Part shown: in pieces, positions 5,961 to 34,735 of the stretch
How positions within the stretch are numbered: position 1 is the stretch's first letter
Layout of the letters: each line of letters begins with the position of its first letter
NCBI GenBank assembly: GCA_028711115.1
Contig: JAQTSV010000001.1
Location: 582,032 to 646,031, forward strand
Origin: Candidatus Omnitrophota bacterium
GTDB taxonomy: Bacteria; Omnitrophota; Gorgyraeia; Velamenicoccales; JABMQK01
Direction: 5' to 3'
DNA: 64,000 bases
Position numbers and translations under genes: made by a program
The notes under the pieces: generated by a model
Seen by the model: the letters and a program-made list of their open reading frames with translations, nothing else
Told to the model about the DNA's origin: nothing
Database searches by the model: none

Positions 5961-6200
5961 ATGGCGGCATTTCATGGGCCTAAGATGTATGGTGCGGTAA
6001 CAGTAGGAGAGCGAGGGCAGGTGGTAATACCTTCGGAATTGAGGGAATCTTTTGGGGTCAAGGCAGGGGATAAGCTGATAGTTTTTGCCAAGCCAGGAGA
6101 AGCCATCGGCCTTATCCCGGCAGACCAATTCAATGAATTCCTTAGCCATATGAGTAAGATGATGGCAAGCATTAAGAAAGAAAAAACAAATAATAAATAA
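5961..6200 (+). CDS. AbrB/SpoVT/MazE-family DNA-binding protein
   Basis: Strong SD (AAAGGAGGA). Looped-hinge-helix signature VTVGERGQVVIPSELRESFGVKAGDKLIVF. Confidence 0.8.
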   Translation: MAAFHGPKMYGAVTVGERGQVVIPSELRESFGVKAGDKLIVFAKPGEAIGLIPADQFNEFLSHMSKMMASIKKEKTNNK

Positions 6201-11708: not shown

Positions 11709-11741
11709 TAAATTTAGCGATTTAAATTAGGAGGCAAATTA

Positions 11742-12989: not shown

Positions 12990-13062
12990 TATATAAAATA
13001 ATTTTTAAAACCTTTGCTATATTAAGTATCCAGCAGGATGGAATGATTATCCTAGAGTTATG

Positions 13063-13090
13063 TTGACAAATTTAAATAAAGTAGTATAAT
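13063..13090 (+). promoter_or_regulatory. Sigma70-like promoter (TTGACA - 16 nt - TATAAT)
   Basis: Consensus hexamers at 13063-13068 and 13085-13090. Confidence 0.5.
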
Positions 13091-13119
13091 ATATTACAGA
13101 AAGATTAGAAAATCTTAAG

Positions 13120-13157
13120 CCGTAGAGGAAGATAGCTAACCTTTACGGATTTTTTTT
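13120..13157 (+). terminator. Intrinsic terminator-like hairpin inside the helicase leader (attenuator or short-RNA end)
   Basis: A 9-bp stem (CCGTAGAGG / CCTTTACGG), an 11-nt loop and a run of eight T. It lies about 25 nt downstream of the predicted transcription start. Confidence 0.55.
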
Positions 13158-13182
13158 CTGTATTATCTGAAAAGGAGCAGCC

Positions 13183-13335
13183 ATTAAACCAGTCAGAACA
13201 TCATGTAAAGGCAGGAAGTGCAGGTATCCGCACTGTAAGCAAATCTTAAGCATCTATAATCATGAAGCTTATTGTCATGTTCATCTTGGTCAGTTGGTTT
13301 CAGGCCACAGGTCTAAAATTTCCAAAACATTATGA
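13183..13335 (+). CDS. Tentative Cys/His-rich mini-protein (about 50 aa) with a non-AUG start, coupled to the helicase gene
   Basis: Stop-to-stop ORF 13171-13335 has no ATG. A perfect SD (AAGGAG, 13172-13177) sits 5 nt before ATT at 13183. The TGA stop overlaps the helicase ATG (ATGA). Sequence contains SCKGRKCRYPHCKQILSIYNHEAYCHVH. Confidence 0.3.
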   Translation: MKPVRTSCKGRKCRYPHCKQILSIYNHEAYCHVHLGQLVSGHRSKISKTL

Positions 13336-14597
13336 TGAATAAATCAGCTAATATAGCTAACGTTCAACAAGTAGCCAGTCAGCCGAATCAGGGTTTTTAC
13401 GGTTTGGGTATTGCACCGAAAATTCTGGATATCCTTGAACGCATAAAATTCAATGTGCCCACGCCGATTCAGCTCAAGGCAATCCCTCTGGCAATTGAAG
13501 GTAAGGATATCATCGGTATTGCGCAGACAGGAACCGGTAAAACCCATTCTTTTGCCATTCCCATGGTGCAGCGCCTGGCGCAAAAAAAAGGTACAGGATT
13601 AGTGCTTGCGCCGACCAGGGAATTGGCTATCCAGATTGACGAGGCTTTCCGGGGAATCGCATATTCATTCGGAATGCGCACTGCCTGTCTTATCGGTGGT
13701 GCTCCGATGCCGCCACAGGTACAGGCGCTGCGTAAAAACCCGCGCATTGTAATTGCCACTCCGGGCAGGCTCCTTGACCACATGAGGCGCTGGAATATTT
13801 TGACTAATGATGTAATAATGCTCGTACTTGATGAAGCAGACCGCATGCTGGATATGGGTTTTGCCCCGCAGATAGAACAGATTTTACGTTTTCTGCCTAA
13901 GGAAAGACAGACCATGCTTTTTTCTGCGACTATTCCCAAAGAGATTATGGCCATCGCCGCTAAATATATGAAACTTCCGGTTTCTGTTGAAATCGCCCCT
14001 TCAGGCACTATCCCGGAACGCGTTACCCAGGAATTATTTATTGTAAAAAAAGATGCCAAGTTGCGGCTTTTGGGAAAATTACTTATGCAATACCACGGCT
14101 CAATTCTTTTGTTCTCCCGCACCAAACATAATGCAAGAAAGATTACGGTAGCAATCAGGAATATGGGCCACAGGGCTGCCGAAATACATTCTGACCGTTC
14201 CCTGAATCAGCGCCGTGAAGCACTGGAAGGCTTTAAATCAGGTAAATATAAAGTGCTGGTTGCTACTGATATTGCTGCCCGAGGGATTGATGTTACCGGA
14301 ATTGAGCTGGTTATTAATTACGACCTTCCCGAAGACACAGAAAATTATGTGCACCGTATCGGCCGCACAGGAAGGGTAGGGCATAAAGGGCATGCAATTT
14401 CTTTTGCCACACCTGACCAGAGCCACGATGTGCGCGACATTGAAAGGCTTATCAGGACGACGCTTCCTATTTCCAGACATCCCGAATTTTCCACGGAACA
14501 ATTTATTCAATCTCCGCATCGGCCTTCATACAGACAATCGAGGCATAATTATGGCCAAAGGCGCAATAATTTCCACAGACATAAGTTTTCCCGTTAA
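13332..14597 (+). CDS. DEAD-box ATP-dependent RNA helicase
   Basis: Q-motif region, AQTGTGKT, DEAD (VLDEADRML), SAT, HRIGRTGR, and a basic C-terminal tail. No SD of its own. Confidence 0.92.
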   Translation: MMNKSANIANVQQVASQPNQGFYGLGIAPKILDILERIKFNVPTPIQLKAIPLAIEGKDIIGIAQTGTGKTHSFAIPMVQRLAQKKGTGLVLAPTRELAIQIDEAFRGIAYSFGMRTACLIGGAPMPPQVQALRKNPRIVIATPGRLLDHMRRWNILTNDVIMLVLDEADRMLDMGFAPQIEQILRFLPKERQTMLFSATIPKEIMAIAAKYMKLPVSVEIAPSGTIPERVTQELFIVKKDAKLRLLGKLLMQYHGSILLFSRTKHNARKITVAIRNMGHRAAEIHSDRSLNQRREALEGFKSGKYKVLVATDIAARGIDVTGIELVINYDLPEDTENYVHRIGRTGRVGHKGHAISFATPDQSHDVRDIERLIRTTLPISRHPEFSTEQFIQSPHRPSYRQSRHNYGQRRNNFHRHKFSR

Positions 14598-14648
14598 AGT
14601 ATTAAGTTAATAAAATCACAAAGTCACTTTTTTGGTTTCATAAAATTC

Positions 14649-14677
14649 TTGATATAATAAGGTAAGCGTTTTATAAT
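14649..14677 (+). promoter_or_regulatory. Sigma70-like promoter (TTGATA - 17 nt - TATAAT)
   Basis: Hexamers at 14649-14654 and 14672-14677. Confidence 0.4.
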
Positions 14678-14720
14678 ACCTGTTATAAAAGTTAAATTCT
14701 ATTCTAAGTCGGAGGTAATC

Positions 14721-15689
14721 ATGGAAAAAATAGCAGAGTTAAAAGCCAACACCTTAAATACCGCGGAATTTATCAATGAAAAGGCGCAGGAAATATCTAG
14801 AACAGTAGGAGACGGCCTTGCCATCAACGCACTTTCCGGCGGAGTGGATTCTTCAGCAGTCACAATGTTAGGCCACAAGGCCTTAGGCGATCGCCTAAAA
14901 ACCTATTTTATAAATAATGGTTTGATGCGCAAAGATGAACCAGAGTCAATTGTTTCCATATTCAAGAAACTGGGCGTAAAGGTGGAAATAGTCGACGCGC
15001 AGGCCAGATTTTTCAAGGCGCTGAGAGGTATTACTGATCCGGAAGAAAAAAGAGAAGCTATCACGCAGACTTTTTACAAAGATGTTTTCGCCAAATTAGT
15101 AAAAGATAGCGGCGCAAAATATCTTTTACAGGGAACAATTCTTACCGATGTAGATGAAACCGTTGCCGGCATCAAAAGACAGCACAATGTCTTTGAACAG
15201 CTTGGCATTGATCCGCAGGAGGCATTTGGTTACAAGATTATCGAACCTTTAGTGCAGTTGCGCAAAGACGGCGTAAGAAAGGTTGCCGAGGCATTAAATC
15301 TGCCCAAATCCATATTTAACCGTATGCCATTTCCCGGCCCAGCATTGTCAGCCAGGGTAATCGGCGAAGTCACGCCGGAAAAAATAAACACAGTGCGAAT
15401 CGCTACTTCCATTGTAGAAGAAGAATTAGCACAAGTATCCGCATTTCAATATATGGCCATTTTACATAACGACAGAGTCACCGGTATGCGTCAGGGAAAA
15501 AGAGATTTCGGCCTGCAGATTGAAATCAGATGCTGGAATAGCATTGATGCCAGAAATGCAAAGCCCACGCAGGTTGCTTACGAAAAACTGGAAAAATTAG
15601 CCAGCCGTATGACAACAGAAGTCCCCGGCGTGGTCAGCGTAACTTATAATATTGCCTCCAAACCGCCGTCAACAATGGAAGCGGTTTAG
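14721..15689 (+). CDS. guaA: GMP synthase ATP-pyrophosphatase subunit/domain only (no glutamine amidotransferase domain)
   Basis: PP-loop SGGVDSSAV. Also DPEEKR, LLQGT, PFPGPALSARV and the C-terminal SKPPSTME, collinear with the GuaA C-terminal half. 322 aa. Confidence 0.75.
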   Translation: MEKIAELKANTLNTAEFINEKAQEISRTVGDGLAINALSGGVDSSAVTMLGHKALGDRLKTYFINNGLMRKDEPESIVSIFKKLGVKVEIVDAQARFFKALRGITDPEEKREAITQTFYKDVFAKLVKDSGAKYLLQGTILTDVDETVAGIKRQHNVFEQLGIDPQEAFGYKIIEPLVQLRKDGVRKVAEALNLPKSIFNRMPFPGPALSARVIGEVTPEKINTVRIATSIVEEELAQVSAFQYMAILHNDRVTGMRQGKRDFGLQIEIRCWNSIDARNAKPTQVAYEKLEKLASRMTTEVPGVVSVTYNIASKPPSTMEAV

Positions 15690-15744
15690 TTTTTCTATAT
15701 TCTTTTCTGCTTTATAAAATCAGAAGGCATATCCAGGCTCGATT

Positions 15745-16353
15745 ATGACCGAAAATATTATTTGGGAAAAATTTGAGCAGTGGACAAAGAACCTCAATCC
15801 TAAACAAGCGCGCATTTCTATTTTTAATCACATCCGCGATATTCCTTATGCTATAGTTCCGCAATTAAGGAATCCCACCAGCGGCCCGGCAGGAATGCTA
15901 GATTTAAACAAAGGTTCATGCCAGCCCAAACACTATCTTTTGGCTATTTTCTTTCAGAAATTAGGTATTCCTGTAAAATACGTAACGTATCCTTTTAAAT
16001 GGAAAGATTCTTCTGTCAATTTCCCCGACCAGATACAGGCGATTATCAATGATTTGCCTTTCGCCTATCATCTCGCCTGTAAGGCCTATATTAAAGAGAA
16101 ATGGATTCTAGTTGATGCCACCTGGGATAAACCTTTAAAAGAAGTCGAATTTCCCGTAAATGAGAATTGGAATGGTGAAAGCGATACCATAAACGCAGTA
16201 CCTGCCTGGGATGAAATTGTTCACCATACCTTGCAGGACCGTATTAGATATGAAGCCGAACAAAGAGGCCGTCAGAGCGAAGAACAGAAGGCCTTATACG
16301 CTGAATTTATCAAAAGGTTAAATTTCTGGTTAGAGAGTGTGAGGAATGACTAA
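15745..16353 (+). CDS. Transglutaminase-like cysteine protease-fold protein
   Basis: Candidate Cys-His-Asp triad in GSCQPKH, YHLACKAY and VDATWD. Confidence 0.65.
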   Translation: MTENIIWEKFEQWTKNLNPKQARISIFNHIRDIPYAIVPQLRNPTSGPAGMLDLNKGSCQPKHYLLAIFFQKLGIPVKYVTYPFKWKDSSVNFPDQIQAIINDLPFAYHLACKAYIKEKWILVDATWDKPLKEVEFPVNENWNGESDTINAVPAWDEIVHHTLQDRIRYEAEQRGRQSEEQKALYAEFIKRLNFWLESVRND

Positions 16354-16365
16354 AAAGGAGACAAT

Positions 16366-16803
16366 ATGTTAGCCAATCAGGGAATAAAGATGCAGATAAA
16401 TGAAGTTGTACAGAAATTTGCTGAGGCGTTTTCCGAAAGAGACGCCAATACACTGCTCGGCCTTTTTGCCGACGATCCGGATGTCACTTTGATAGGTTCT
16501 GGTATTGATGAGGTGAGGGTAGGCATTAAAGAAATTGCCTCCCAGTTTGACCGCGACTGGATGCAGTCCGATGGCATCAAGAGCCAGGTTAAAATCAACA
16601 ATGTCTCTTGTGCCGGCAATGTGGCCTGGACTTTTGGTGAAACCAAAGTGCAGGCAAGAATGCATAATGAGACTGTCTCTTATTATGCGCGTTTTACCGG
16701 AGTTTTTGAAAGGCGTAAAGACAAGTGGCTAATTATGCAGTGGCATATTTCCCTTCCGGCCTATGAGCAGGAGGAAGGCGAATCCTGGCCGGAGAAACGG
16801 TAA
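16366..16803 (+). CDS. SnoaL/NTF2-like fold protein (DUF4440-like)
   Basis: SD (AAGGAG) 5 nt upstream. The pattern FAEAFSERDANTLLGLFADDPDV...RKDKWLIMQWHIS is typical of NTF2-like small proteins. Confidence 0.6.
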   Translation: MLANQGIKMQINEVVQKFAEAFSERDANTLLGLFADDPDVTLIGSGIDEVRVGIKEIASQFDRDWMQSDGIKSQVKINNVSCAGNVAWTFGETKVQARMHNETVSYYARFTGVFERRKDKWLIMQWHISLPAYEQEEGESWPEKR

Positions 16804-16831
16804 ACAACGTCAGGCTTTAAAATAATATCCT

Positions 16832-17404
16832 ATGCCTAAGAAAATACTGATACTTTCCGGAAGCCCGAAGAAGAACGGCAATACCGCAACGCTCGTGAAA
16901 TGGTTTAGCCAAGGCGCGCGTTCAAAAGGCGCCGAAGTGGAAATAGTACGTACCGCCTTCTTAAGGTACAAATCCACCGGCTGCACATCCTGCAGGATGT
17001 GCCAGAAACTCAAAAAATACGAATGCGTCATAAATGACCAAGCTAAACCTATCTTGGCAAAGATGGCCAGGGTAGATGTGATAGTTATGGCTACGCCGCT
17101 TTATTTCTTTTCCGCCAGCGCGCAGCTAAAGCTCGTGTTTGACAGGATGTTTTCGCTTTATAAATGGGACAATAAAGCCAACACAATGACAACACCTTTA
17201 AAAGGAAAAACTTTTGTGCTGATTGCCAGCGCATTTGAAGATGTGGGATTAGACGCACTCAAGAAACCATTTGCTTTGACAGCCAAATACACTAAGATGA
17301 AATTCAAATCCCTGCTTATCCCCAATGCCGGAGAGTCAGGCGACATTAAGAATAAAACCGATATCCGCAAAAAGGCAGTTACATTTGGCAGGAAAGCAGT
17401 GTGA
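16832..17404 (+). CDS. Iron-sulfur flavoprotein-like NADPH-dependent FMN reductase fold protein
   Basis: Flavodoxin-like N-terminus ILILSGSPKKNGNT. Compact Cys motif CTSCRMCQKLKKYEC (C-x2-C-x2-C-x7-C), as in Isf proteins. Confidence 0.75.
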   Translation: MPKKILILSGSPKKNGNTATLVKWFSQGARSKGAEVEIVRTAFLRYKSTGCTSCRMCQKLKKYECVINDQAKPILAKMARVDVIVMATPLYFFSASAQLKLVFDRMFSLYKWDNKANTMTTPLKGKTFVLIASAFEDVGLDALKKPFALTAKYTKMKFKSLLIPNAGESGDIKNKTDIRKKAVTFGRKAV

Positions 17405-17510: not shown

Positions 17511-17541
17511 ATTCACTCTTTTAGAGAGTGAATTTTTTTAT
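17511..17541 (+). terminator. Rho-independent terminator
   Basis: A 9-bp stem (ATTCACTCT / AGAGTGAAT) followed by seven T. Confidence 0.7.
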
Positions 17542-17579
17542 TAATAGGCAGATTAAGCAAACGATACGGACTGGAATTT

Positions 17580-19028
17580 ATGAGATATGATTTGGTGCTT
17601 TTGAATACAGTTTTGATTCCTGTTGCAGGCGCATTTATCCTGCCGCTGGTAGCGCGGATTTCGCTTAAGACTAGGGATTTTGCGGCGCTGGGTTTGGTGC
17701 TGGCGTCGTTTGTATTTTCACTTTTGCTGATACCTCAGATTATGGCAGGCAGAGCGGTAATCATTTTCAGCCAGCTGCCATTGGGTTTTAATTTCGTTCT
17801 CACTGCGGATGCCTTGGCAGTATTTATGGCCTGCGTGTCTTCGTTTATCAGCGCGATAATCATTTTATATTCCTTCGGATACATCAGCCACTACGAGAAT
17901 CAGAATGAATACTATACGATGGTGGTGTTGTTTTTGGGCGCGATGATGGGTTTGGTGTTTGCAGGAAATCTTATTTTATTATATGTATTCTGGGAAATTA
18001 CCGCCATAACCAGCTGGCGCTTAATCGGATTTTTCAGAGAAAAGAAGCACGTTATATGCGCGGATAAGGCATTTCTGGTAACTATGTTTGGTGCTGTGTT
18101 GATGCTCATAGGATTTATCAGTATATTCCAGCAGACCGGATCATTTGATCTGGCAGTGATAAAGGAAAGCGTAAAAACTAATCCGGTTTCCAATCTGGCA
18201 ATAGCATTAATTCTTGTGGGAATATTTTCCAAGTCAGCGACTCTGCCGTTTCATACCTGGCTTCCGGACGCAGGTGTTGCGCCGTCGCCGGTGACTGCTT
18301 TGCTGCATGCGGCAATTCTGGTAAAGATAGGTGTGTATGTGTTCGCAAGATTATTCCTCACAACTTTTTCGCTTGCTCAATTCTGGCATACAGCCGTGCC
18401 GATAATAGCCGCCATAAGCGCCATTGTTTCTGCCGGGGCTGCGTTAAGGGAGACAGATATAAAAAGGATTATTGCCTATTCGACTGTAAGTCAGATAGGC
18501 TTTATATTTTTGGGATTATCCATAGGAAATGAATTGGCAGTGGCAGGCGGTTTGTTATATATTCTTATGCACGGCTTAGCCAAGGCCGGGTTGTTTCTTT
18601 GCGCAGGCATAATAGAACAGAACACAAAGACCAAGGATATCACAAAACTCGGCGGCCTGATAAAGACCATGCCTGTGACAGCCATGGCATTTTTATTCTG
18701 CGCATTTTCCGTGATGGGCATTCCGCCGTTCGGCGGATTCTTCAGTAAATACATGGTTTTTGCCGGGGCAGTGGAAACCGGACATTTGTGGATAGTGTTT
18801 GCGTTTTTAGTGGGAGCATTTCTTACGATTCTTTATCTTTTCAGGGTATTTAATTTAGTATTCTTGGGTGAGGCACGCTCTTTAATACAGGCAAAAGAGA
18901 AGAGCCCGATAATGGTTACAAGCGTGGCGATTTTGGCTGTGCTTTCGCTTGTGGGCGGAATTTTTATTAATTATCCTTGCGGATTTGTACAGATTATTTT
19001 GGCAAATATGGCCGGGATTATAAAATGA
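17580..19028 (+). CDS. Hydrogenase membrane arm: antiporter-like subunit 1 (MrpD/NuoN/MbhH family)
   Basis: 482 aa polytopic protein. Proton-conducting-transporter motifs WEITAITSW, SKSATLPFHTWLPDA and LLHAAILVKIG. Confidence 0.85.
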   Translation: MRYDLVLLNTVLIPVAGAFILPLVARISLKTRDFAALGLVLASFVFSLLLIPQIMAGRAVIIFSQLPLGFNFVLTADALAVFMACVSSFISAIIILYSFGYISHYENQNEYYTMVVLFLGAMMGLVFAGNLILLYVFWEITAITSWRLIGFFREKKHVICADKAFLVTMFGAVLMLIGFISIFQQTGSFDLAVIKESVKTNPVSNLAIALILVGIFSKSATLPFHTWLPDAGVAPSPVTALLHAAILVKIGVYVFARLFLTTFSLAQFWHTAVPIIAAISAIVSAGAALRETDIKRIIAYSTVSQIGFIFLGLSIGNELAVAGGLLYILMHGLAKAGLFLCAGIIEQNTKTKDITKLGGLIKTMPVTAMAFLFCAFSVMGIPPFGGFFSKYMVFAGAVETGHLWIVFAFLVGAFLTILYLFRVFNLVFLGEARSLIQAKEKSPIMVTSVAILAVLSLVGGIFINYPCGFVQIILANMAGIIK

Positions 19029-20860
19029 TAGATAAACTTTTACTACTCTTACTTATAATTTTACCTTTAATTGCCGCAGTCAAAATTCTTATAATTTTCA
19101 GGAAATTTCCCAAGCTGACAGAGGCAGCCGCGTTATCAGCTACATTGTTAAACCTTTTGCTGGCGATAATATTATTCAAGAGCGAGATTAGATTTTTTGC
19201 GCCGTGGCTGGGATGGGGATTGGATTTTTCACTCAGACTTTATCACTTCAGCGCTTTCATAATTTTAGCCATTGCGGGTTTCAGTTTTCTGATTGCTCTG
19301 TATTCCGTTGTGTTTATGCGCGGCAAGCCTTGTTTAAATCAATTTTATGTATATTTTCTTTTGACGCTTGCTTTTGCCAACGGCGTAGTGCTCAGCGACA
19401 ATCTGCTGATACTTTTGTTTTTCTGGGAAGGGCTACTTCTGACTTTATTCGGCATGATAGCCATAGGAAACAAGAATGCTTTTCAGGTTGCCACCAAGGC
19501 ATTTATTATCGTGGGCATTACTGATCTATGTATGATGATAGGCATTGCGCTCACAGGATATCTTTCCGGGACAATGGCAATATCACAGATAAATCTTCCG
19601 TTGGGCGGCTTGGCAAGCCTGGCGTTTATTCTTTTGATAATCGGGGCGATTTCCAAGTCCGGATCAATGCCGTTCCACAGCTGGATTCCCGACGCTGCTA
19701 TGGACGCGCCGCTTCCTTTTATGGCGCTGATTCCTGCGGCGTTTGAGAAACTTCTGGGAATATATTTTCTTACCAGGATTTGCCTGGATATGTTCAGGCT
19801 TAACGTAAATTCCTGGTTAAGCATTTTACTTATGATTGTGGGGGCGGTTACTATAATCCTTGCGGTAATGATGGCACTGATACAGAAGAATTACAAAAGA
19901 TTGCTGTCATATCATGCCATAAGCCAGGTGGGTTATATGATATTAGGTATTGGCACGGCAGTGCCGGCAGGGATTGTCGGCGGATTATTCCATATGATTA
20001 ATAATGCGCTTTATAAAAGCTGTCTGTTTCTTACCGGCGGAGCAGTAGAAAAACAGACCGGCACGACCAATCTGGAAGAACTGGGCGGAATCGGTTCTAA
20101 GATGCCCGTAACATTTATCTGTTTTATTATCACCGCGCTTTCCATATCCGGCGTTCCGCCGTTTAACGGTTTCTTTTCCAAAGAACTCGTATATGACGGG
20201 GCTTTGCAGCGCGGAAATATTTTTTATATTATAGCAGTGCTGGGTTCATTTTTTACTGCCGCGTCTTTCTTAAAGTTGGGTCATGCAGCTTTTCTGGGAA
20301 AATTGCAGGAAAAAAACAATAATGTCAGAGAAGTTTCTTTTTCCATGTTATTGCCGATGATTGTGATTGCGCTGTTGTGTATTGTATTCGGAGTTTTTAA
20401 TTATCTGCCGTTAAATAAACTTATTGGGCCGATACTCGGCGAATCTCGTCTGGGAGGCCATAATTTCTCTGGATTCCCCGTCAATATGAAATTGGTTGTA
20501 GTCAGCGTGGTTGTTTTAATTGCTGCTTTGTTAAACCATATCTTTGCAGTGAGGGTTAAGGGAAGCGCAATCAAGGCCTCAGACCATATTCACCATGCGC
20601 CGGTATTATCCGCAATTTATGACAGGGCAGAAAAAAGATTTTTCGATCCTTATGATATAGGAATGAATATCACGCGCAAGATATCAAAAGTTGCCTTCTT
20701 GTGCGATAAGGCCATAGATTGGATTTATAATGTTTTGATAGTGAAACTGACTTTTGCTTTTACAAATGAAATAAAAAGATTACATAACGGAAGTTATTCT
20801 ATGTATCTGGTATGGTCTTTATTGGGATTATTTCTGGTTGCAGCATTTTTAGTACACTAA
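19025..20860 (+). CDS. Hydrogenase membrane arm: antiporter-like subunit 2 (MrpA/NuoL-like, with C-terminal extension)
   Basis: The ATG at 19025 overlaps the upstream stop (ATGA); the track ORF start at 18977 lies inside the upstream gene. Motifs FFWEGLLLT and SKSGSMPFHSWIPDA. About 100 extra residues after the core end in a TM helix. Confidence 0.85.
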   Translation: MIDKLLLLLLIILPLIAAVKILIIFRKFPKLTEAAALSATLLNLLLAIILFKSEIRFFAPWLGWGLDFSLRLYHFSAFIILAIAGFSFLIALYSVVFMRGKPCLNQFYVYFLLTLAFANGVVLSDNLLILLFFWEGLLLTLFGMIAIGNKNAFQVATKAFIIVGITDLCMMIGIALTGYLSGTMAISQINLPLGGLASLAFILLIIGAISKSGSMPFHSWIPDAAMDAPLPFMALIPAAFEKLLGIYFLTRICLDMFRLNVNSWLSILLMIVGAVTIILAVMMALIQKNYKRLLSYHAISQVGYMILGIGTAVPAGIVGGLFHMINNALYKSCLFLTGGAVEKQTGTTNLEELGGIGSKMPVTFICFIITALSISGVPPFNGFFSKELVYDGALQRGNIFYIIAVLGSFFTAASFLKLGHAAFLGKLQEKNNNVREVSFSMLLPMIVIALLCIVFGVFNYLPLNKLIGPILGESRLGGHNFSGFPVNMKLVVVSVVVLIAALLNHIFAVRVKGSAIKASDHIHHAPVLSAIYDRAEKRFFDPYDIGMNITRKISKVAFLCDKAIDWIYNVLIVKLTFAFTNEIKRLHNGSYSMYLVWSLLGLFLVAAFLVH

Positions 20861-20875
20861 ATGATAGGAGAATAG

Positions 20876-22309
20876 ATGTATTCGTCGTTAATATTGCTGC
20901 CGTTTCTTAGCGTAATAGCCTTAAACCTGCCATTCAGGAATTTAATGAAGAAGCTGGCCTTTGTGGTCTGTTTATTGGTATTGCTTGTCCAGATCAGCTT
21001 AATCGTCTGTCCTTCAATCTGCATATGGAGCAATGATTTGGATATTTTCGGTTCTTTTTTACAATTTAATTTCGCGGTAGATAATTTGAGCCGTGTGATG
21101 TTATTTTGTATCGGCATTGTCCTGCTGGCTGCGCTTTTTGTGCAGAGATATATAATTGACGACGAGGAACGAATCTTTAATTTTGTCAATGTCCTGCTTC
21201 TGATACTTATAGGAATGGATGGCATTGTGATGGTGCGCGATATTTTCTCTTTGTATATATTTCTGGAGATTACGGCGGTGGGTTCTTTTATTCTCATAGG
21301 GTTCAATAAAGATGTCGATGCGTTCGAGGCGGCGTTCAAATACATAATTCTTTCCGTGGTGGCAACGGTATTAATGCTTTCGTCGATAGCCTTGCTTTTG
21401 ATTGTTTCCGGAAGCACCAGTTTTTCCTCCATAAGCGACGCATTAAAGACATCTCCGGATAGCCTTCTTATCAGTTCTGCCGTGGCTATTTTTCTCTGTG
21501 CCTGTTTTATCAAAGCAGGGCTTATTCCGTTTCACGGCTGGCTCGCCGACACTTATTCTGCAGCGCCCGCAGCTGTCTCTGTACTTTTGGCGGGAATCGT
21601 AACCAAGACTGTAGGCGCCTACACATTGATAAGAATAGTAAATTCAGTATTTGGTTTTGAGAGTTCCATAAATAGTCTTTTGCTTGTGATAGGCATAATT
21701 TCAATAGTTATAGGAGCGCTGGCAGCCCTGGGCCAACGCGATTTTAAAAGAATGCTTGCATATTCCAGCATCAGCCAGGTTGGTTATATTATATTAGGTT
21801 TAGGGTGTGGCACAACATTGGGATTGGCAGGGGCAGTGTTTCATTTATTTAATCACTCCATTTTTAAAACGCTTTTGTTTGTGAATTCAGCAGCCGTAGA
21901 ATTAGAGACAGGCACAACAGATATGAATGGTCTCTCGGGATTATCGAAGAAGATGCCGTTTACAGCCATGACTTCGGTTGTGGCGAGTTTATCCGCAGCC
22001 GGCATACCGCCTTTGTCCGGATTCTGGAGCAAATTGATTATTATTATGGCGCTGTGGATGTCCGGATTTTATGTTTACGCAGTAATAGCGATATTAGCGA
22101 GCGTATTAACGCTTGCTTATTTTCTTTCTTTGCAGAGGATGGTATTCTTCGGAAGACTAAAAGAAGATTCAGCAAATATAAAAGAGGCGGGTTTGGGTTT
22201 AATGTTCCCGGCTCTTATACTTGCATTGATAATAGTGGCAGTGGGTTTATTTTTTCCCTTTATAATTAATACCTTTATATTGCCGGCGGGAAATATTTTA
22301 GGAGGGTAG
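20876..22309 (+). CDS. Hydrogenase membrane arm: antiporter-like subunit 3 (MrpD/NuoM family)
   Basis: SD (AGGAG). 477 aa polytopic protein. Motifs FLEITAVGSF, IKAGLIPFHGWLADT and SISQVGYI. Confidence 0.85.
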   Translation: MYSSLILLPFLSVIALNLPFRNLMKKLAFVVCLLVLLVQISLIVCPSICIWSNDLDIFGSFLQFNFAVDNLSRVMLFCIGIVLLAALFVQRYIIDDEERIFNFVNVLLLILIGMDGIVMVRDIFSLYIFLEITAVGSFILIGFNKDVDAFEAAFKYIILSVVATVLMLSSIALLLIVSGSTSFSSISDALKTSPDSLLISSAVAIFLCACFIKAGLIPFHGWLADTYSAAPAAVSVLLAGIVTKTVGAYTLIRIVNSVFGFESSINSLLLVIGIISIVIGALAALGQRDFKRMLAYSSISQVGYIILGLGCGTTLGLAGAVFHLFNHSIFKTLLFVNSAAVELETGTTDMNGLSGLSKKMPFTAMTSVVASLSAAGIPPLSGFWSKLIIIMALWMSGFYVYAVIAILASVLTLAYFLSLQRMVFFGRLKEDSANIKEAGLGLMFPALILALIIVAVGLFFPFIINTFILPAGNILGG

Positions 22310-22310
22310 A

Positions 22311-22799
22311 GTGTCTGTCGATATAATTATTCTTTTTACTTTTATTATGGCTGCGCTTTGGACAGTAATGACCAGAAGTCTTTTGCGCTCTGCCATAGGG
22401 CTTGCACTTACCAGCGCCATACTTAGCATAATTATGTTCAGGCTTAATTCGCCTCTGGCTGCGGTGTTTGAGTTATCGGTATGTTCTGGTTTAATTTCAG
22501 TATTATTTATCAGCACTATAAGCCTTACACATCCATTGACACAAAAGGAAGTTTTGGAACATATGAGGGAAAGGTTGGCCAGATTTTGGCTTTTGCCTTT
22601 CATCGTAATAGTTTTAGGCATTACTTTAAGTTTGATAGATATAAGGCCGGTCATAAAACTGCCTTTGCCGGAAACGGTAAAAGATGTGCGTGTAGTCTTG
22701 TGGAATTTGAGGCAGGTGGATGTGATGGGCCAGATTATCATATTGTTAACCGGCGTATTCGGAGTGGTAATACTATTTAAGGAAAGGGTAAAAAAGTGA
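22311..22799 (+). CDS. MnhB / MbhD-MbhE-like small membrane subunit (NuoJ-equivalent position)
   Basis: GTG start 1 nt after the upstream stop, with GGAGGG upstream. Four TM helices. The N-half resembles the MbhD/DUF4040 pattern and the C-half the MnhB pattern (VDVMGQIIILLTGVFGV). Confidence 0.7.
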   Translation: MSVDIIILFTFIMAALWTVMTRSLLRSAIGLALTSAILSIIMFRLNSPLAAVFELSVCSGLISVLFISTISLTHPLTQKEVLEHMRERLARFWLLPFIVIVLGITLSLIDIRPVIKLPLPETVKDVRVVLWNLRQVDVMGQIIILLTGVFGVVILFKERVKK

Positions 22800-23116
22800 A
22801 CACTGAAGTTATGCGTTTATTTTGGTCGTATGGCTTGTTTATCAGCATACTTTGTATAATTGGTTTTTATTGCATCCTGGTAACTTATAATTTAATCAGG
22901 GCGTTGGTCGGTTTGGAAATTCTGATCAAGGCAGCAACGCTTTTAATAATAGTCGCAGGATATATCACCGGCCACGAGGCATTGGCACAGAGCCTGGTTA
23001 TTACGTTGATAGTAATTGAAGCGGTGGTAATTACTGTGGCGGTGGGAATTGTTCTGGGGATTCGCAGCCACAATAATTCCCTGGATGCAAGAAAGATAAG
23101 GAATCTGAAGGGATAA
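22796..23116 (+). CDS. NuoK/MnhC/MbhG-like membrane subunit
   Basis: 106 aa with three TM helices. LIRALVGLEILIKAATLLII resembles the NuoK/MrpC glutamate-containing helix. GTGA overlap with the upstream gene. Confidence 0.75.
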   Translation: MNTEVMRLFWSYGLFISILCIIGFYCILVTYNLIRALVGLEILIKAATLLIIVAGYITGHEALAQSLVITLIVIEAVVITVAVGIVLGIRSHNNSLDARKIRNLKG

Positions 23117-23121
23117 AAAAT

Positions 23122-23454
23122 ATGGAGAAATGGTTAATTACACCTCCGGTTGCTTTTATAGTAATTCTATGCGCAGCGTGGTTAGCTGCACGTTTACTTT
23201 CAAGGCTTGCGTTTCGCACTACATTAAAGACTAACGGTTCGCGGCAATCTTATGCCTGCGGCGAAGAGAATTATGACCATATGGCCCAGCCTGACTACAG
23301 CAATTTCTTTCCTTTTGCATTTTTCTTCACGCTGGCACATGTGGCTACGCTTATTATGACTACAGTCCCCACGGAAACATTGGAGACATTTGTCCTGGCT
23401 GCTATTTATATAATCGGCGCAACCTTAGGTTTATACATTTTGTTCAGGAGATAA
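23122..23454 (+). CDS. NuoA/MbhI-like membrane subunit
   Basis: 110 aa with three TM helices. The loop motif SYACGEE corresponds to the NuoA YECG loop. Confidence 0.7.
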   Translation: MEKWLITPPVAFIVILCAAWLAARLLSRLAFRTTLKTNGSRQSYACGEENYDHMAQPDYSNFFPFAFFFTLAHVATLIMTTVPTETLETFVLAAIYIIGATLGLYILFRR

Positions 23455-23461
23455 TTTTTTT

Positions 23462-23902
23462 ATGGGATTGGTAAAGAAAATCGTAACTTGGGCAAGGATT
23501 AAATCGCCGTGGATACTGCATTTTAATACCGGCGCCTGCAACGCCTGCGATATCGAGATCATAGCGGCGCTGACTCCGCGTTATGACCTGGAGCGTTTTG
23601 GCGTGCAGCTGAAAGGAACGCCGCGGCATGCAGACATATTGGTTTGTTCTGGTCCGGTGACAAAACAGATAGAGGACAGGTTGGTAAGGATTTATGAGCA
23701 GATGCCCGAGCCGAAATTTGTGGTGGCAGTGGGCACTTGCGCCTGCAGCGGCGGAGTTTTCAACGGCTGCTACAATATAAAAGGCGGCATTAAATCCACG
23801 ATACCTGTATCGGCTTTTATTCCCGGCTGCCCTGCCAGCCCCAAGGCCATAATTGATGGCGTAGTGAAATTATTGCAGAGTTTGGAAGAACCTAAAAAAT
23901 AA
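23462..23902 (+). CDS. [NiFe]-hydrogenase small subunit (NuoB/MbhJ family)
   Basis: SD (AGGAG). Four cluster cysteines in GACNACDIE, GTCACSGG and PGCPASP. Confidence 0.9.
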   Translation: MGLVKKIVTWARIKSPWILHFNTGACNACDIEIIAALTPRYDLERFGVQLKGTPRHADILVCSGPVTKQIEDRLVRIYEQMPEPKFVVAVGTCACSGGVFNGCYNIKGGIKSTIPVSAFIPGCPASPKAIIDGVVKLLQSLEEPKK

Positions 23903-23917
23903 GCAAAGGAGCAATAA

Positions 23918-24373
23918 ATGTCCCAGGAAGAAAAAATAAAACAGGAATTGATAAACAGATTCAGCTATCTGGAGAATATTATTAAAATACAGCGGCCGAG
24001 AAGAATGTCTGCAGAGATTGATTATAATAATTTTACGGAAATTTTAGATTATGCCGTAAAACAATTGAAATTTATTCATTTATGCACGATAACCGGCCTG
24101 GATGAACAGGATAAATTAGGTTTCATTTATCATCTGGCACAGGATTCGGGAGTTTTATTTAATTTAAAAACAAGTGTGTTCAAACAAAATCCTGAGATAA
24201 AGAGTGTAATGCCGTATTTTGCCGGCGCAGAAATTTACGAAAGAGAATTAGTGGATTTATTGGGAGTTAAAGTTGAAGGTTTGCCCGTCGGTAATCGCTA
24301 TCCTTTGACAGACGACTGGCCGACAGACCAGTTTCCTCTGCGCAAAGATTGGAAACCTTCTTCGGATAAATAA
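23918..24373 (+). CDS. NuoC/MbhK-like hydrogenase subunit
   Basis: SD (AAAGGAG). 151 aa. YERELVDLLGVKVEG...PLRKDW is typical of the 30-kDa (NuoC) family. Confidence 0.85.
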   Translation: MSQEEKIKQELINRFSYLENIIKIQRPRRMSAEIDYNNFTEILDYAVKQLKFIHLCTITGLDEQDKLGFIYHLAQDSGVLFNLKTSVFKQNPEIKSVMPYFAGAEIYERELVDLLGVKVEGLPVGNRYPLTDDWPTDQFPLRKDWKPSSDK

Positions 24374-24386
24374 AGAGGTGAATAAA

Positions 24387-25631
24387 ATGCATAAACCAGA
24401 GCCAGATAAATTTAAAATACCTGTAGGGCCGCAACATCCTGCCTTAAAAGAGCCGGAAGGTTTTAGCGTGGCCTTAAAAGGCGAAAAGATTATGGGATTG
24501 GAAATCCGCCTTGGTTACAACCATCGCGGAATAGAAAAGGCATGCGAAGAGAGGACTTATATTCAGGATTTATATTTGATTGAACGCGTCTGCGGAATAT
24601 GTTCGCACTCTCACTCGACCTGTTTTGTGCAGGCAGTGGAGGAGATTGCTGCGGTAGAAGTGCCGAAACGCGCTCTTTATATCCGTACTTTAATCGGAGA
24701 ATTGGAACGCGTCCACAGCCATTTGCTTTGGCTGGGCGTAGCCGGACACGAAATAGGTTTTGATACCTTGCTTATGTATGCCTGGCGCGACCGTGAGATT
24801 GTTATGGATCTTCTGGCACTTATCACAGGCAATCGCGTTAATTATGGTATGAATACTATCGGAGGCGTAAGGCGCGATATTAGCAAAGAACAGGCAGAGG
24901 AAGTGCTGAAGGGAATAAATATTCTCGAGGAAAGGACCAAGTATTACATTGAAATTGCCACGCAGGAAACCACAATCATAAAAAGATTATCAGGCGTGGG
25001 TATAATTTCTCATGAAGATGCGTTAAAATTAGATGCAGTTGGCCCTACTGCGCGCGCTTCCGGTGTAAACAGGGATGTCAGATACAACGATCCTTATGCA
25101 GCCTATGGTGAAATAACATTCAATGTAATCACAGATACGCACAATGATGTTTATGGCCGTACTTTGGTAAGAGTCAAGGAGCTCATGGAGTCTTACCAGA
25201 TAATCCGCCAGTGTCTTAAGAAAATACCCGATGGCCCGATACTGACTAAAGTGCCGCGTAAAATTCCCATAGGTGAAGCAACCAGCCGTTATGAAGCCCC
25301 GCGCGGCGAAGACGTGCATTATGTAAAATCCAACGGCAGCGAAAAACCTGAGAGGGTAAAGATAAGGGCACCGACATTGGCCAATATACAGGCAGTAAAA
25401 CATATGCTGAAAGACAGATTCCTTGCCGATATGCCTATAGTCATTGCTGCGATAGACCCTTGTTTTTCCTGTACTGACAGGTCGGTTTCTTTGGAAAATC
25501 CAGGTGACAGAAATAAAGAAATTATGACCTGGCATGCCCTTCGCACTTACAGTATCGAATGGTATAAAAAGCAGGGAATAGATTTCACGGAATTAAATAA
25601 TAATTTAAAAAATAAATTGGAAAGGCGTTGA
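24387..25631 (+). CDS. Group-4 [NiFe]-hydrogenase large (catalytic) subunit (NuoD/MbhL family)
   Basis: N-terminal RVCGICSHSH and C-terminal DPCFSCTDR Ni-Fe ligand motifs are both intact. I prefer the ATG at 24387 (AGAGG 8 nt upstream) over the track's GTG at 24378. Confidence 0.9.
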   Translation: MHKPEPDKFKIPVGPQHPALKEPEGFSVALKGEKIMGLEIRLGYNHRGIEKACEERTYIQDLYLIERVCGICSHSHSTCFVQAVEEIAAVEVPKRALYIRTLIGELERVHSHLLWLGVAGHEIGFDTLLMYAWRDREIVMDLLALITGNRVNYGMNTIGGVRRDISKEQAEEVLKGINILEERTKYYIEIATQETTIIKRLSGVGIISHEDALKLDAVGPTARASGVNRDVRYNDPYAAYGEITFNVITDTHNDVYGRTLVRVKELMESYQIIRQCLKKIPDGPILTKVPRKIPIGEATSRYEAPRGEDVHYVKSNGSEKPERVKIRAPTLANIQAVKHMLKDRFLADMPIVIAAIDPCFSCTDRSVSLENPGDRNKEIMTWHALRTYSIEWYKKQGIDFTELNNNLKNKLERR

Positions 25632-26569
25632 TGATTAAGGCACTTTTTTCTATTCTGATTTTTCCCGGGTTTTTGTTTGTGAGTGTTTTTGGTTTATTTG
25701 CAGAATTTTTTGACAGGAAAATATATGCCCGTCTGCAGAACAGGGTAGGGCCGCCTTGGTTTCAGACATTTGCGGATTTTATCAAATTATTGGCAAAAGA
25801 GGATATCGTTCCTTGCGAAGCCAATCCCAGGATGTTTGGCCTGGCACCTATATTTGCACTGGCTTCGGTCATAACCGTATTTCTTTATATACCGCTCTGG
25901 AAAACAGAGACGCTGTTTTCTTTTAACGGCGATATAATTATGGTTCTCTACTTATTGACTGTGCCTACTCTGGCTTTTTTTATCGGCGGCTGGTATTCCA
26001 CTTCGTTATTTGCCAGGATTGGTTCGGTGCGCTGCGTTACGCAGTTGTTTGCTTATGAAGTTCCTCTGTTTATGAGCATCCTGGCGGCAGCGCTTTTGGC
26101 AAATAGCTGGTCTTTGGTTGATATTGTAATTTTCTATACAAGGCATCCGTTATACTGTCTGTTTAATCTTATAGGATTTGGGATTTCGCTGATAGCATTA
26201 TTGGGAAAACTTGAGAAAACTCCTTTTGATATACCCGAGGCAGAGACCGAGATTGTCGCCGGTGCGTTCACAGAATACAGCGGCAGATTGCTGGCGATAT
26301 TAAGATTGACCATAGATATCGAAATGGTGGTGGGCTCGGCGCTTTTAGTGGCGGTATTCTTTCCTTTTGGTTTGACGCTTGCGCCGATTACGGGATTTGT
26401 TGTGTTTATGGCGGAGATTATGTTTGTAATTGCACTGCTTTCATTATTGCGCACAGTTGTGGCCCGTCTGCGCATAGACCAGATGATTAATTTCTGTTGG
26501 AAATATATGGTTCCGCTGGCGATTTTTCAGCTCCTGCTCAATCTTACTTTAAAGAGGATTTTAATGTGA
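25631..26569 (+). CDS. NuoH/MbhM-like membrane subunit
   Basis: The ATG at 25631 overlaps the upstream TGA. The motif RKIYARLQNRVGPP and eight TM helices are typical of NuoH/HycD. Confidence 0.88.
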   Translation: MIKALFSILIFPGFLFVSVFGLFAEFFDRKIYARLQNRVGPPWFQTFADFIKLLAKEDIVPCEANPRMFGLAPIFALASVITVFLYIPLWKTETLFSFNGDIIMVLYLLTVPTLAFFIGGWYSTSLFARIGSVRCVTQLFAYEVPLFMSILAAALLANSWSLVDIVIFYTRHPLYCLFNLIGFGISLIALLGKLEKTPFDIPEAETEIVAGAFTEYSGRLLAILRLTIDIEMVVGSALLVAVFFPFGLTLAPITGFVVFMAEIMFVIALLSLLRTVVARLRIDQMINFCWKYMVPLAIFQLLLNLTLKRILM

Positions 26570-26952
26570 TGAGACCCGGAAAGATGATAAAAGAGGTTTT
26601 GCGCTCAATAATCAAAAAGCCCGCCACGAATTTATATCCTGCGGAAGAGCTTGCGATGCCGCATAATTTCAGGGGCAAGCTGATTTTTCATCCTGAAAAA
26701 TGCGTCGGTTGTAAACTCTGCATGAAAGACTGCCCTACCGGCGCTATTACCATTAATAAAGTCGGCGAAAAACAATTCCAAGCCGTCATAGATTTGGGTA
26801 AATGCATATATTGTGCACAGTGCGTTGATTCCTGTCTGAAAAAAGCCCTTGAAACCACAAAAAATGTGGAATTGGCACAGTTGGATGCGAATAAACTAAA
26901 GGTCACCTTTAGTGGCGAATCTAAAACAGGCATTGAAAATAAAACTCCGTAA
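26569..26952 (+). CDS. 2x[4Fe-4S] ferredoxin-like subunit (NuoI/MbhN family)
   Basis: The ATG at 26569 (TGATG overlap, AAGAGG upstream) is preferred over the track start at 26497. Cluster motifs CVGCKLCMKDCP and CIYCAQCVDSC. Confidence 0.85.
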   Translation: MRPGKMIKEVLRSIIKKPATNLYPAEELAMPHNFRGKLIFHPEKCVGCKLCMKDCPTGAITINKVGEKQFQAVIDLGKCIYCAQCVDSCLKKALETTKNVELAQLDANKLKVTFSGESKTGIENKTP

Positions 26953-27116
26953 TGCAGTTGAATAAGCCCGCAGGCACTACCAGGATTAAAATCAACAGTT
27001 CTTCTTTTTGTACACATAAGTCCTCCTCATAGTCATGACTGATTGCTTGATTAGTTCTCTTAGTTGTGACATAATAATTATCGGTGTTCGATAATAACGA
27101 TTCACAGGTTAATTAA

Positions 27117-27602
27117 ATGCAGAATATGATAATACAGAATGACAAATATATGCGACTGGCTATTAAGGAGGCCAGAAAGAATTTGAAGTCAATGGAAGGC
27201 GGGCCTTTCGGCGCCTGCATTGTTAAAGGCAATAGAATTCTGGCTGTCGCGCGCAATACTGTTTTAAAAAGAGATGCAACCTGTCATGCCGAGATAAATG
27301 CAATAAGAATGGCATCGAAGAAAATCAGAAGTTTTGATCTTTCGGGCTGCATTATTTATTCGACGACCGAGCCGTGCCCGATGTGTTTTAGCGCCATACA
27401 CTGGGCAAAGATCGACGCTGTTATCTACGGGACTACTATTAAAGATGCGGAAGACATAGGATTTAATGAACTTAAAATAACTGATAGTTTATTAAAAGCC
27501 TTGGGTAAAAGCAGGGTAAAGTTAAAAAGAACTTTGCTCCTTGGTGAGTGCAGGAAACTATTCAAAGATTGGTATGTGCTGCCGAATAAAAAGCTATATT
27601 AA
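27117..27602 (+). CDS. CDA-fold deaminase, guanine deaminase (GuaD)-like
   Basis: GGPFGACIV, the zinc motifs CHAEINAIR and PCPMC, and a C-terminal ...FKDWYVLPNKKLY resembling the small Bacillus-type guanine deaminase. Confidence 0.75.
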   Translation: MQNMIIQNDKYMRLAIKEARKNLKSMEGGPFGACIVKGNRILAVARNTVLKRDATCHAEINAIRMASKKIRSFDLSGCIIYSTTEPCPMCFSAIHWAKIDAVIYGTTIKDAEDIGFNELKITDSLLKALGKSRVKLKRTLLLGECRKLFKDWYVLPNKKLY

Positions 27603-27614: not shown

Positions 27615-28064
27615 ATGCAAACCATGCATTATAAATTTATGCAGGAGGCGATAAGGCAGGCCAAGAGAGGATTAAGGCAAGGCGGTATTCCCATTGGTTC
27701 TGTGTTGGTGAAAGACGGTAAGATAATCGGCCGCGGCCACAATAAAAGAATGCAGAAAAAATCTGCCATTCTTCACGCCGAAATGGATTGTTTGGAAAAT
27801 ACGGGAAGGCTAAAAGCCAGGGACTATAAAAAATGTGTGATATATTCAACGTTGTCGCCTTGCGATATGTGCACCGGCGCAATCCTGCTTTATAAAATTC
27901 CCGTGGTTGTCATCGGAGAGAATAAGACTTTCAAGGGGCCTGAGGGATATTCCAGGAAAAGAGGAGTAAAGATTATAAATTTAAATATGCAGGAATGTAA
28001 AGATATGATGCGGGATTTCATCCATAAAAATCCCCGTTTATGGAATGAGGATATCGGAAAATAA
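27615..28064 (+). CDS. CDA-fold deaminase, small yeast-type (Fcy1-like) cytosine deaminase
   Basis: HAEMDCLEN and LSPCDMCTGA. The tail VVVIGENKTFKGPEGY...FIHKNPRLWNEDIG is collinear with Fcy1-type cytosine deaminases as I recall them. Confidence 0.75.
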   Translation: MQTMHYKFMQEAIRQAKRGLRQGGIPIGSVLVKDGKIIGRGHNKRMQKKSAILHAEMDCLENTGRLKARDYKKCVIYSTLSPCDMCTGAILLYKIPVVVIGENKTFKGPEGYSRKRGVKIINLNMQECKDMMRDFIHKNPRLWNEDIGK

Positions 28065-34734: not shown

Positions 34735-34735
34735 T

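Follow-up and report, generated by a model that had tools for sequence, protein, structure and literature searches.

Bioenergetics has long asked how a soluble-type hydrogenase module gave rise to complex I, which reduces quinone and pumps four protons, and enzymes that keep the Ni-Fe site together with a full complex I membrane arm are natural test objects for it. An eleven-gene locus of Candidatus Omnitrophota raises this question directly: do its genes encode a hydrogenase or a quinone reductase, is it the peculiarity of one genome, and what could its membrane arm do? The locus lies in a stretch of 64,000 nucleotides (64 kb; the window; assembly GCA_028711115.1, contig JAQTSV010000001.1, positions 582,032 to 646,031), which matches contig JAQUPK010000001.1 of the Omnitrophota metagenome-assembled genome (MAG) GCA_028716625.1 with 100% identity. 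It comprises eleven plus-strand open reading frames (ORFs) between 17580 and 26952, with junctions from a 4-nt overlap to a 15-nt gap, just as a first, sequence-only reading of the window had described them. We conclude that they probably encode a membrane-bound, energy-converting group 4 [NiFe] hydrogenase whose subunits correspond one to one to NuoA, B, C, D, H, I, J, K, L, M and N.

The active site is predicted to be of the hydrogenase and not of the quinone-reductase type. The large subunit, a NuoD homologue of 414 amino acids (aa; 24387–25631; PF00346 and PF00374), contains the motifs GPQHPALKEP, RVCGICSHSH (L1) and DPCFSCTDR (L2), followed by a 48-aa tail. All four Ni-Fe cysteines are present, in the two CxxC pairs already recognised in the sequence-only reading, and the Ehr/Mbx-type loss of these residues is absent here. 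The Ni-Fe motifs and the tail motif W..LR.YSI.WY..GIDF are kept in every related locus with a whole large-subunit gene; we take the tail to resemble the cleaved C-terminal peptide of E. coli HycE. Against the PDB, the large subunit scores 331 bits with P. furiosus MbhL, 261 with HycE, 230 with T. thermophilus Nqo4 and 188 with MbsL. The small subunit, which is NuoB-like (146 aa, 23462–23902; PF01058), holds the ligands GACNACD...GTCAC...PGCP for one [4Fe-4S] site, and C26-x2-C29, C93 and C123 are invariant in 75 orthologues. Complex I has a HPxxHGVLR-type loop in NuoD, quinone-binding His and Tyr residues and a tandem-Cys N2 cluster in NuoB. In the window proteins, GPQHPALKEP stands where complex I has that loop, the position of the quinone-binding Tyr is taken by a cysteine ligand, and the small subunit is of the hydrogenase CxxC type; the tandem CC is absent. 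On the other side of the balance, the large subunit reaches 244 bits on PF00346 (Complex1_49kDa), above its PF00374 score, and 342 bits on the NCBIfam NuoD model, whose cutoff is 360.

The remaining peripheral and anchor subunits agree with this assignment. The NuoI/MbhN-like protein (127 aa, 26569–26952; Fer4 families, NCBIfam NuoI/HycF-type) has two CxxCxxCxxxC motifs for two [4Fe-4S] clusters and is the presumed entry point of ferredoxin. It is joined by a NuoC-like protein (151 aa, 23918–24373; PF00329) and a NuoH/MbhM-like membrane anchor (312 aa, 25631–26569; PF00146), which matches MbhM with 144 bits versus 124 for NdhA/Nqo8. In the FDIPEAETEIVAGAFTEYSG loop of the anchor, E207 and E215 are invariant and E203 and E205 largely conserved in the orthologue alignment. 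The window thus has these sequence features of group 4: the L1/L2 large subunit, the CxxC...C...C small subunit, the subunit with two [4Fe-4S] clusters and the NuoH-like anchor.

Upstream of these genes stands a complete membrane arm with three antiporter-like pumps, one of them bearing a NuoL-type helix; all eleven subunits together form a complex-I-like set. Pfam bears out the three PF00361 antiporter-like subunits of 482, 611 and 477 aa that the sequence-only reading had named. Subunit 1 (482 aa, 17580–19028; PF00361 and PF00662) is a core of the NuoL/MrpA-N class without C-terminal extension; it matches MrpA (218 bits), NdhF (209) and NuoL (198) in the PDB, and E139, K218, H243, K335 and K390 are invariant in 61 orthologues. 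Subunit 3 (477 aa, 20876–22309; PF00361) belongs to the MrpD/MbhH/NuoN class, with 225 bits to MbhH, 196 to MrpD and 191 to MbsH; its E131, K213, K244, K331 and K386 are conserved in 65–68 of 68 orthologues. All three subunits have Glu in transmembrane helix (TM) 5, Lys in TM7, His or Lys in TM8 and Lys in TM11 and TM12, and these residues are conserved across 59–68 orthologues from many phyla. Matches at 200–300 bits were also obtained with the NCBIfam models HyfB and HyfD.

The middle subunit (611 aa, 19025–20860; PF00361) carries the extension that was suspected to be of NuoL/MrpA type and to end in a TM helix. Its NuoL-type assignment rests on three observations. First, the match to the NCBIfam NuoL model runs end to end, covering positions 4–610 of 615. 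Second, an AlphaFold2 model built from 43 homologues (mean pLDDT 82.9) places TM15 at 488–512, a long lateral helix at 528–586 (528–536 and 542–586) and TM16 at 591–610. Third, Foldseek aligns this model over its full length with NuoL/ND5/NdhF/Nqo12 and with MrpA (TM-score about 0.75), and with MbhH over the 14-helix core only. E135, K211, K242, K331 and K386 are conserved in the orthologue alignment. The NuoL extension of complex I spans two neighbouring pumps, and the extension of the 611-aa subunit is equally long. A sequence-only PDB search with the 140-aa C-terminal extension gave no significant match, and we do not claim that its conserved D561 is the equivalent of E. coli NuoL D563.

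The subunits that connect the pumps to the anchor were confirmed by Pfam and profiles, with one correction: the gene first called MnhB/MbhDE-like is the NuoJ equivalent. This protein (162 aa, 22311–22799) matches PF00499 over its whole length (34 bits) and MbsD/MbhD with its N-terminal half, residues 3–77 (MbhD 24 bits); it corresponds to MbhD and MbhE in one chain, and its E54 is invariant (73/73 orthologues). The NuoK/MbhG-like protein (106 aa, 22796–23116; PF00420) keeps the membrane glutamates E41 and E75 in 70–71 of 72 orthologues. The NuoA/ND3-like protein (110 aa, 23122–23454), with its YACGEE loop and invariant Y44 and G47, matches PF00507 weakly. As a single sequence it found nothing in the PDB; a profile of 31 orthologues retrieved only ND3/NuoA chains, with full-length alignment and a best E value of 8e-4. 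Finally, in Margulisiibacteriota (L034 at about 4.7–7.8 kb; P0341, P0345 and P0380) the genes of antiporter-like subunits 1 and 2 (Ant1 and AntL) are fused into one of about 1000 aa, suggesting that the two subunits are adjacent in the complex. Taken with the NuoL-length helix, the fusion suggests the order NuoH–A/J/K–Ant3–Ant1–AntL.

Is such an operon peculiar to this genome? The sequence-only reading had thought of an under-described subgroup or an evolutionary intermediate. A rare or intermediate form confined to this genome is not what we find: the operon is conserved and occurs in at least 15 phyla. Hundreds of relatives share 77–84% identity with the large subunit, the named ones mostly from Omnitrophota, and at 50% clustering it matches 1010 representative clusters (E ≤ 1e-30), the nearest of which keep both Cys motifs. 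A scan of one genome per GTDB species yielded 80 loci with 55–79% identity. Their hosts, labelled as deposited with the MAGs and perhaps in some cases products of binning errors, are Omnitrophota, Phycisphaerae/Sedimentisphaerales, Kiritimatiellia, Verrucomicrobiota, Elusimicrobiota, Endomicrobia, Margulisiibacteriota, Bacillota (including Christensenella and Acutalibacteraceae), Spirochaetota, Bipolaricaulota, Coriobacteriia, Myxococcota, Fibrobacterota, Acidobacteriota, Aminicenantes, Caldisericota and one Methanobacteriota MAG. The synteny comparison that had been proposed found the exact gene order of the window in 45 of the 80 loci; Omnitrophota, Planctomycetota, Kiritimatiellia, Elusimicrobiota, Margulisiibacteriota, Bacillota, Spirochaetota and Acidobacteriota are among the groups that share it. 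Most of the others end at contig ends or differ by ORF calling or by fusion of NuoC to the large subunit, and only L070, L071 and L080 place J-K first.

The operon is equally constant in what it leaves out. MrpE/F/G/B-like, formate dehydrogenase, carbon monoxide dehydrogenase (CODH) and NuoEFG genes are absent from the 64-kb window, no MrpE/F/G-like genes lie directly upstream of the operon, and no MrpEFG/MbhABCF, formate dehydrogenase, CODH or NuoEFG genes were found inside or beside the 80 loci. Small membrane proteins of the MrpE/F/G kind do not recur as neighbours around these loci either. Both absences had been noted for the window from the sequence alone and now extend to the family. The neighbours that do recur are HycI and, occasionally, Hyp proteins and a membrane H+-pyrophosphatase. 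Among the related loci, 10 have the pyrophosphatase gene next to the operon. So does L088, in which hycI is followed by MotA/ExbB- and ExbD-type genes and then by the pyrophosphatase gene, called as two pieces (14051–16334). This is a hint that the two may both serve to energise the membrane. On an "Actinomycetota" MAG contig (L026, about 11–14 kb), a second, shorter B-D-H-I hydrogenase-like set follows immediately downstream of the 11-gene operon.

In the literature, Omnitrophota MAGs are known for "group 4g" membrane-bound hydrogenases described as Mrp-linked (PMC8542988, PMC10066038), and many combine such an enzyme with a partial or complete Wood-Ljungdahl pathway (PMC10066038). The 4g enzyme of Endomicrobium has been described as uncharacterised (PMC11257099); two Endomicrobia MAG loci (L038 and L045) carry the same operon with 65–66% identity, a tie to the published 4g genes that runs via the host taxon. 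Group 4g itself is a loose, polyphyletic class (PMC13582414). Loh et al. 2021 presented Hfo, from Bathyarchaeia, as the first known case of a [NiFe] hydrogenase that has the eleven subunits and the gene order of Fpo/Nuo and lacks MbhABCF; related clusters occur in Ca. Methanomethylicus and Pyrodictium (HydDB 4g-6; PMC7886697). Complex-I-like group 4 hydrogenases (4j–4q) with shorter membrane arms were reported from Asgard archaea by Appler et al. 2024 (bioRxiv 10.1101/2024.07.04.601786). We found no publication that explicitly describes the bacterial operon as an 11-subunit complex-I-like hydrogenase, within an incomplete coverage of the literature. The window locus is thus a bacterial member of the recognised 11-subunit, complex-I-like group 4g-type [NiFe] hydrogenases, linked to 4g via its host taxa, and has a distinct gene order. 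The sequence-only reading had asked whether the enzyme falls inside a characterised subgroup of the same composition. Indeed, the composition is already described in Hfo, but Hfo has another gene order and another membrane arm than the window locus, and biochemical characterisation of any member is lacking.

The comparison with Hfo shows where the two part. Both have eleven subunits homologous to NuoABCDHIJKLMN, the L1/L2 motifs, no MbhABCF and no input module, and neither Hfo nor the bacterial clade is biochemically characterised. The peripheral subunits of an Hfo-type Bathyarchaeota cluster (L085) are 53–65% identical to those of the window (small subunit 65%, large subunit 53%), whereas its antiporter-like subunits reach only 27–32% and NuoJ 23%, and NuoK and NuoA have no BLAST match. 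The Hfo-type order A-B-CD-H-I-J-K-L-M-N contrasts with L-like, L, N-like, J, K, A, B, C, D, H, I in the window; NuoC and NuoD are fused in the Hfo-type clusters and separate here. Moreover, Hfo is archaeal, and the clade of the window is mainly bacterial. In a neighbour-joining tree, which is distance-based, has no support values and carries source names on a few clusters only, the bacterial loci group together in a single cluster; its neighbour is a Methanoregula type, and the Bathyarchaeota representative P0124 stands apart.

This Methanoregula Mbh-type cluster (Methanomicrobiales) is the nearest outgroup in the tree, with 56% identity, and its J, K and A are 38–40% identical to those of the window over aligned segments of 42–88 residues. 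Its locus L087 reads J-x-K, fused double antiporter, antiporter, A-B-C-D-H-I-HycI: J-K comes first, as in L070, L071 and L080, NuoJ is split, and two antiporter modules are joined into one protein of 1094 aa (3776–7060). The Mbh of P. furiosus (group 4d; PDB 6CFW) is the best solved match for the large subunit, the NuoH-like subunit, one antiporter-like subunit and the N-terminal half of NuoJ. It shares the tail of the gene order, where the A-B-C-D-H-I equivalents are MbhI–N, and its ferredoxin-dependent H2 evolution is the functional model for the window enzyme. Mbh has one antiporter-like subunit together with MbhA–C and F, which are MrpE/F/G/B-like. In contrast, the window has three antiporter-like subunits, all with complete sets of charged residues and one with a NuoL-type helix, and no Mrp E/F/G/B genes.

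Complex I, NDH-1, Fpo-like complexes and Nuo without NuoEFG have in common with the window the 11 core subunit homologues, three pumps with a Glu/Lys chain, the NuoL lateral helix, the NuoK glutamates, the NuoH loop and NuoA/J/K. They differ from it in the quinone site in place of Ni-Fe, the tandem-Cys N2 in place of CxxC, the gene order and the maturation protease found in the operons of the window's relatives. Hyf of E. coli (hydrogenase 4 / FHL-2, group 4a) likewise has three antiporter-like subunits and HycE/HycI-type C-terminal processing. Unlike the window enzyme, it is coupled to formate dehydrogenase, has extra ferredoxin-like subunits and a fused NuoCD-type large subunit, and lacks NuoA- and NuoJ-like subunits; formate dehydrogenase or HycB/HyfA-type polyferredoxin genes occur neither in the window nor as recurrent neighbours. 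The Asgard hydrogenases share the Ni-Fe-retaining NuoD in a Nuo-like complex without NuoEFG. Their large subunit is about 50% identical to ours (P0127/P0416; Promethearchaeota/Hodarchaeota cluster), and the Asgard locus L086 has only A-B-CD-H-I together.

What could the hydrogenase do with this arm? Reduced ferredoxin from fermentation to acetate would hand its electrons to the NuoI-like subunit, which holds two [4Fe-4S] clusters. From there they would travel by way of the one cluster in the NuoB-like small subunit and reach the Ni-Fe site of the NuoD-like subunit, which would reduce protons to H2. In the manner of Mbh and complex I, the interface of NuoD/B/H may then change in charge and conformation, and the glutamate chain of NuoH/A/J/K may relay these changes into the antiporter-like subunits. 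The NuoL-type lateral helix would clamp these three together, ions would be exported, and the reaction should be reversible. In this scheme we infer that ferredoxin is the partner and H+ the coupling ion, as well as the direction, the stoichiometry and the order of the subunits. Ferredoxin-driven H2 evolution had also been proposed in the sequence-only reading, and it would fit the Pta and AckA genes at 33802–35854, about 7 kb downstream of the operon.

Three points weigh against this assignment. No member of the clade has been purified (PMC7886697, PMC11257099), so that donor, direction and ion are read across from homologues. The adjacent maturation protease gene is decayed in this genome and the 64-kb window has no hyp genes; maturation must then depend on genes outside it. 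Finally, the energy does not suffice for the architecture. By our own arithmetic from standard potentials, the step from ferredoxin (about −500 mV) to H+/H2 (−414 mV at 1 bar to about −296 mV at 10 Pa) yields about 17–39 kJ/mol per two electrons. Moving one ion against 150 mV costs about 14.5 kJ/mol and moving four about 58 kJ. This allows at most one to under three ions per H2, not four as in the complex I arm; at normal membrane potential, the export of one ion per turnover through every one of the four putative paths is therefore beyond reach. One possible resolution is a stoichiometry lower than the architecture suggests. It is less likely that part of the arm exchanges ions, since the MrpE/F/G region, thought to carry Na+ in Mbh and Mrp, is missing. 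Another possible resolution is that the enzyme runs mostly backwards, as proposed for Hfo (PMC7886697).

Such an enzyme would work mainly in reverse, with the membrane potential, sustained by ATP hydrolysis or the H+-pyrophosphatase, driving the reduction of ferredoxin by H2. Potential-driven ferredoxin reduction of this kind is known from Eha and Ehb. With reverse running, the high ion/electron ratio of three pumps becomes an advantage at low H2, and the mismatch of forward pumping points the same way, as do the pyrophosphatase genes beside the operon, the suggestion made for archaeal Hfo (PMC7886697) and the joint occurrence of Wood-Ljungdahl pathway and 4g hydrogenase in many Omnitrophota (PMC10066038). 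However, the window contains Pta-AckA and a phosphoenolpyruvate carboxykinase (PEPCK) gene (38709–40490), and no Wood-Ljungdahl genes were seen in its 64 kb. Mbh, the closest solved relative, evolves H2, and many carriers are plain fermenters (Endomicrobium, Christensenella, Elusimicrobia). We therefore regard a mainly reverse reaction as unlikely, if well worth keeping in mind.

The state of the maturation gene raises a second alternative, namely that the hydrogenase of this particular genome is on its way out or being repurposed. About 60 related loci have a gene of about 165 aa directly after nuoI, called PF01750 HycI in L087, L088 and L089; together with the conserved tail of the large subunit it gives the family what reads as a HycE/HycI-type maturation signature. 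In the window, nuoI is followed by a 164-bp spacer with two collinear fragments in adjacent frames, which cover positions 84–109 and 112–135 of the hycI hidden Markov model (HMM). The stronger fragment is the best match of this model in all six frames of the whole window, and tblastn aligns a HycI-type protease to 26958–27020. Judged from these tblastn and HMM segments, the plus-strand hycI gene survives only as a frameshifted relic at 26955–27097. The two closest relatives examined, L088 and L089 (83% identity), keep an intact PF01750 gene, and the loss in the window lineage is therefore recent. The destroyed protease gene and the lack of hyp genes in the window are what would favour a decaying enzyme. 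An AIR-synthase-related (AIRS) domain protein at 2629–3675 was rejected as a HypE candidate: HypE is its best NCBIfam match, but with 94 bits against a cutoff of 252.

The structural genes tell a different story from the relic. None of the eleven ORFs is disrupted, no cofactor or ion-path residue is missing, and the conserved, cleavable-type tail is kept. Tajima relative-rate tests over 3010 concatenated positions, comparing the window lineage with relatives that keep hycI, detected no faster change (181 vs 211 and 238 vs 267 lineage-specific changes, p > 0.1), so the eleven genes do not look relaxed. Moreover, L003 and L004 have intact operons despite lacking an adjacent hycI, and the protease may be encoded elsewhere in the genome. 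Decay or repurposing is hence quite improbable.

A Pyrococcus-type Mbh-Mrp hydrogenase, with its Na+ module of MrpE/F/G/B-like subunits encoded elsewhere in the genome, is more doubtful still. Williams et al. report Mrp in MAGs with 4g hydrogenase (PMC8542988), yet no such genes lie inside or beside the operon in the 80 loci, and NuoJ-, K- and A-like subunits already occupy the places beside NuoH. The three PF00361 subunits can be annotated as MrpA or MrpD, which probably explains the "Mrp" calls of the surveys. Last, an 11-subunit complex I (a ferredoxin:quinone oxidoreductase of NDH-1/Fpo-like type) mis-scored as a hydrogenase is hardly credible: the PF00346 and near-cutoff NuoD scores and the complete Nuo-like arm would suit it, but every orthologue has the four Ni-Fe cysteines, a hydrogenase-type proton-relay loop and the HycE-like tail, a cysteine ligand holds the quinone Tyr position and the NuoB tandem-Cys motif is absent, as described above, and HycI belongs to the relatives' operon.

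Returning to the energy-converting hydrogenase, one may speculate about its origin. The bacterial family of 11(+1) genes may be a distinct lineage, in which a full complex-I-type arm sits on a Ni-Fe site, with four putative ion paths, a lateral helix over two pumps, its own gene order and subunits 23–32% identical to those of Hfo. Three-pump arms would then have joined hydrogenase modules more than once, or the clade would have kept a state near the bacterial precursor of complex I. Its ion/electron stoichiometry would be sub-integer, variable or reversed, because electron transfer from ferredoxin to protons cannot pay for four ions. We put this forward tentatively and hold it possible rather than probable.

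Enzymes that combine Ni-Fe with a complex I arm are in any case not limited to a few archaea but form a conserved operon across many anaerobic bacterial phyla. Lineages with cultured members (Endomicrobia, Christensenella, Elusimicrobiaceae) are the assigned sources of several MAG loci, which makes two questions experimentally approachable: how many ions a three-pump arm moves at about 17–39 kJ per two electrons, and whether the lateral helix and antiporter chain work alike with H+/H2 and with quinone. Complex I surveys based on PF00346, or separate counts of "Mrp", may misassign the operon, whose antiporter-like subunits bear the source names MrpA, MrpD and NuoL. In metabolic reconstructions, such matches and annotations can lead to confusion with complex I or with an independent Mrp antiporter.

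Upstream of the operon lie genes for subunit B of GMP synthase, for transglutaminase-like and SnoaL-like proteins and for an FMN reductase; downstream follow two deaminases, an Fe-S domain protein and a protein of the bile-acid/Na+ symporter family. Between the FMN-reductase gene and the first antiporter-like gene we located a terminator-like hairpin, a consensus match with a 10-bp stem and a subsequent T run (17511–17543; hairpin 17511–17533), which suggests that the operon has its own start. The FMN-reductase/flavodoxin-fold gene (16832–17404) was considered as an input module and rejected. It is separated from the operon by this hairpin and is not recurrent upstream among the 80 loci; a homologue was found in the flank of one other locus only (L043).

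In the close relative L089, the operon is immediately preceded by OEP/MFP/MacB transporter genes (1–3054), and about 8 kb downstream of it there is a dCMP_cyt_deam deaminase gene (20918–21239). In the window, about 7 kb of other genes (10605–17404) separate the transporter (6200–10375) from the operon, and a deaminase gene (27117–27602) nearly abuts nuoI. The flanks were thus rearranged on both sides in the window lineage. The two deaminase genes (27117–27602 and 27615–28064; 161 and 149 aa) are tandem paralogues of the cytidine/deoxycytidylate-deaminase fold (PF00383, MafB19-like). Gene orientation in the window is strongly strand-aligned: all called genes of the 64 kb lie on the plus strand, the GC skew is positive throughout, and the cumulative skew rises monotonically.

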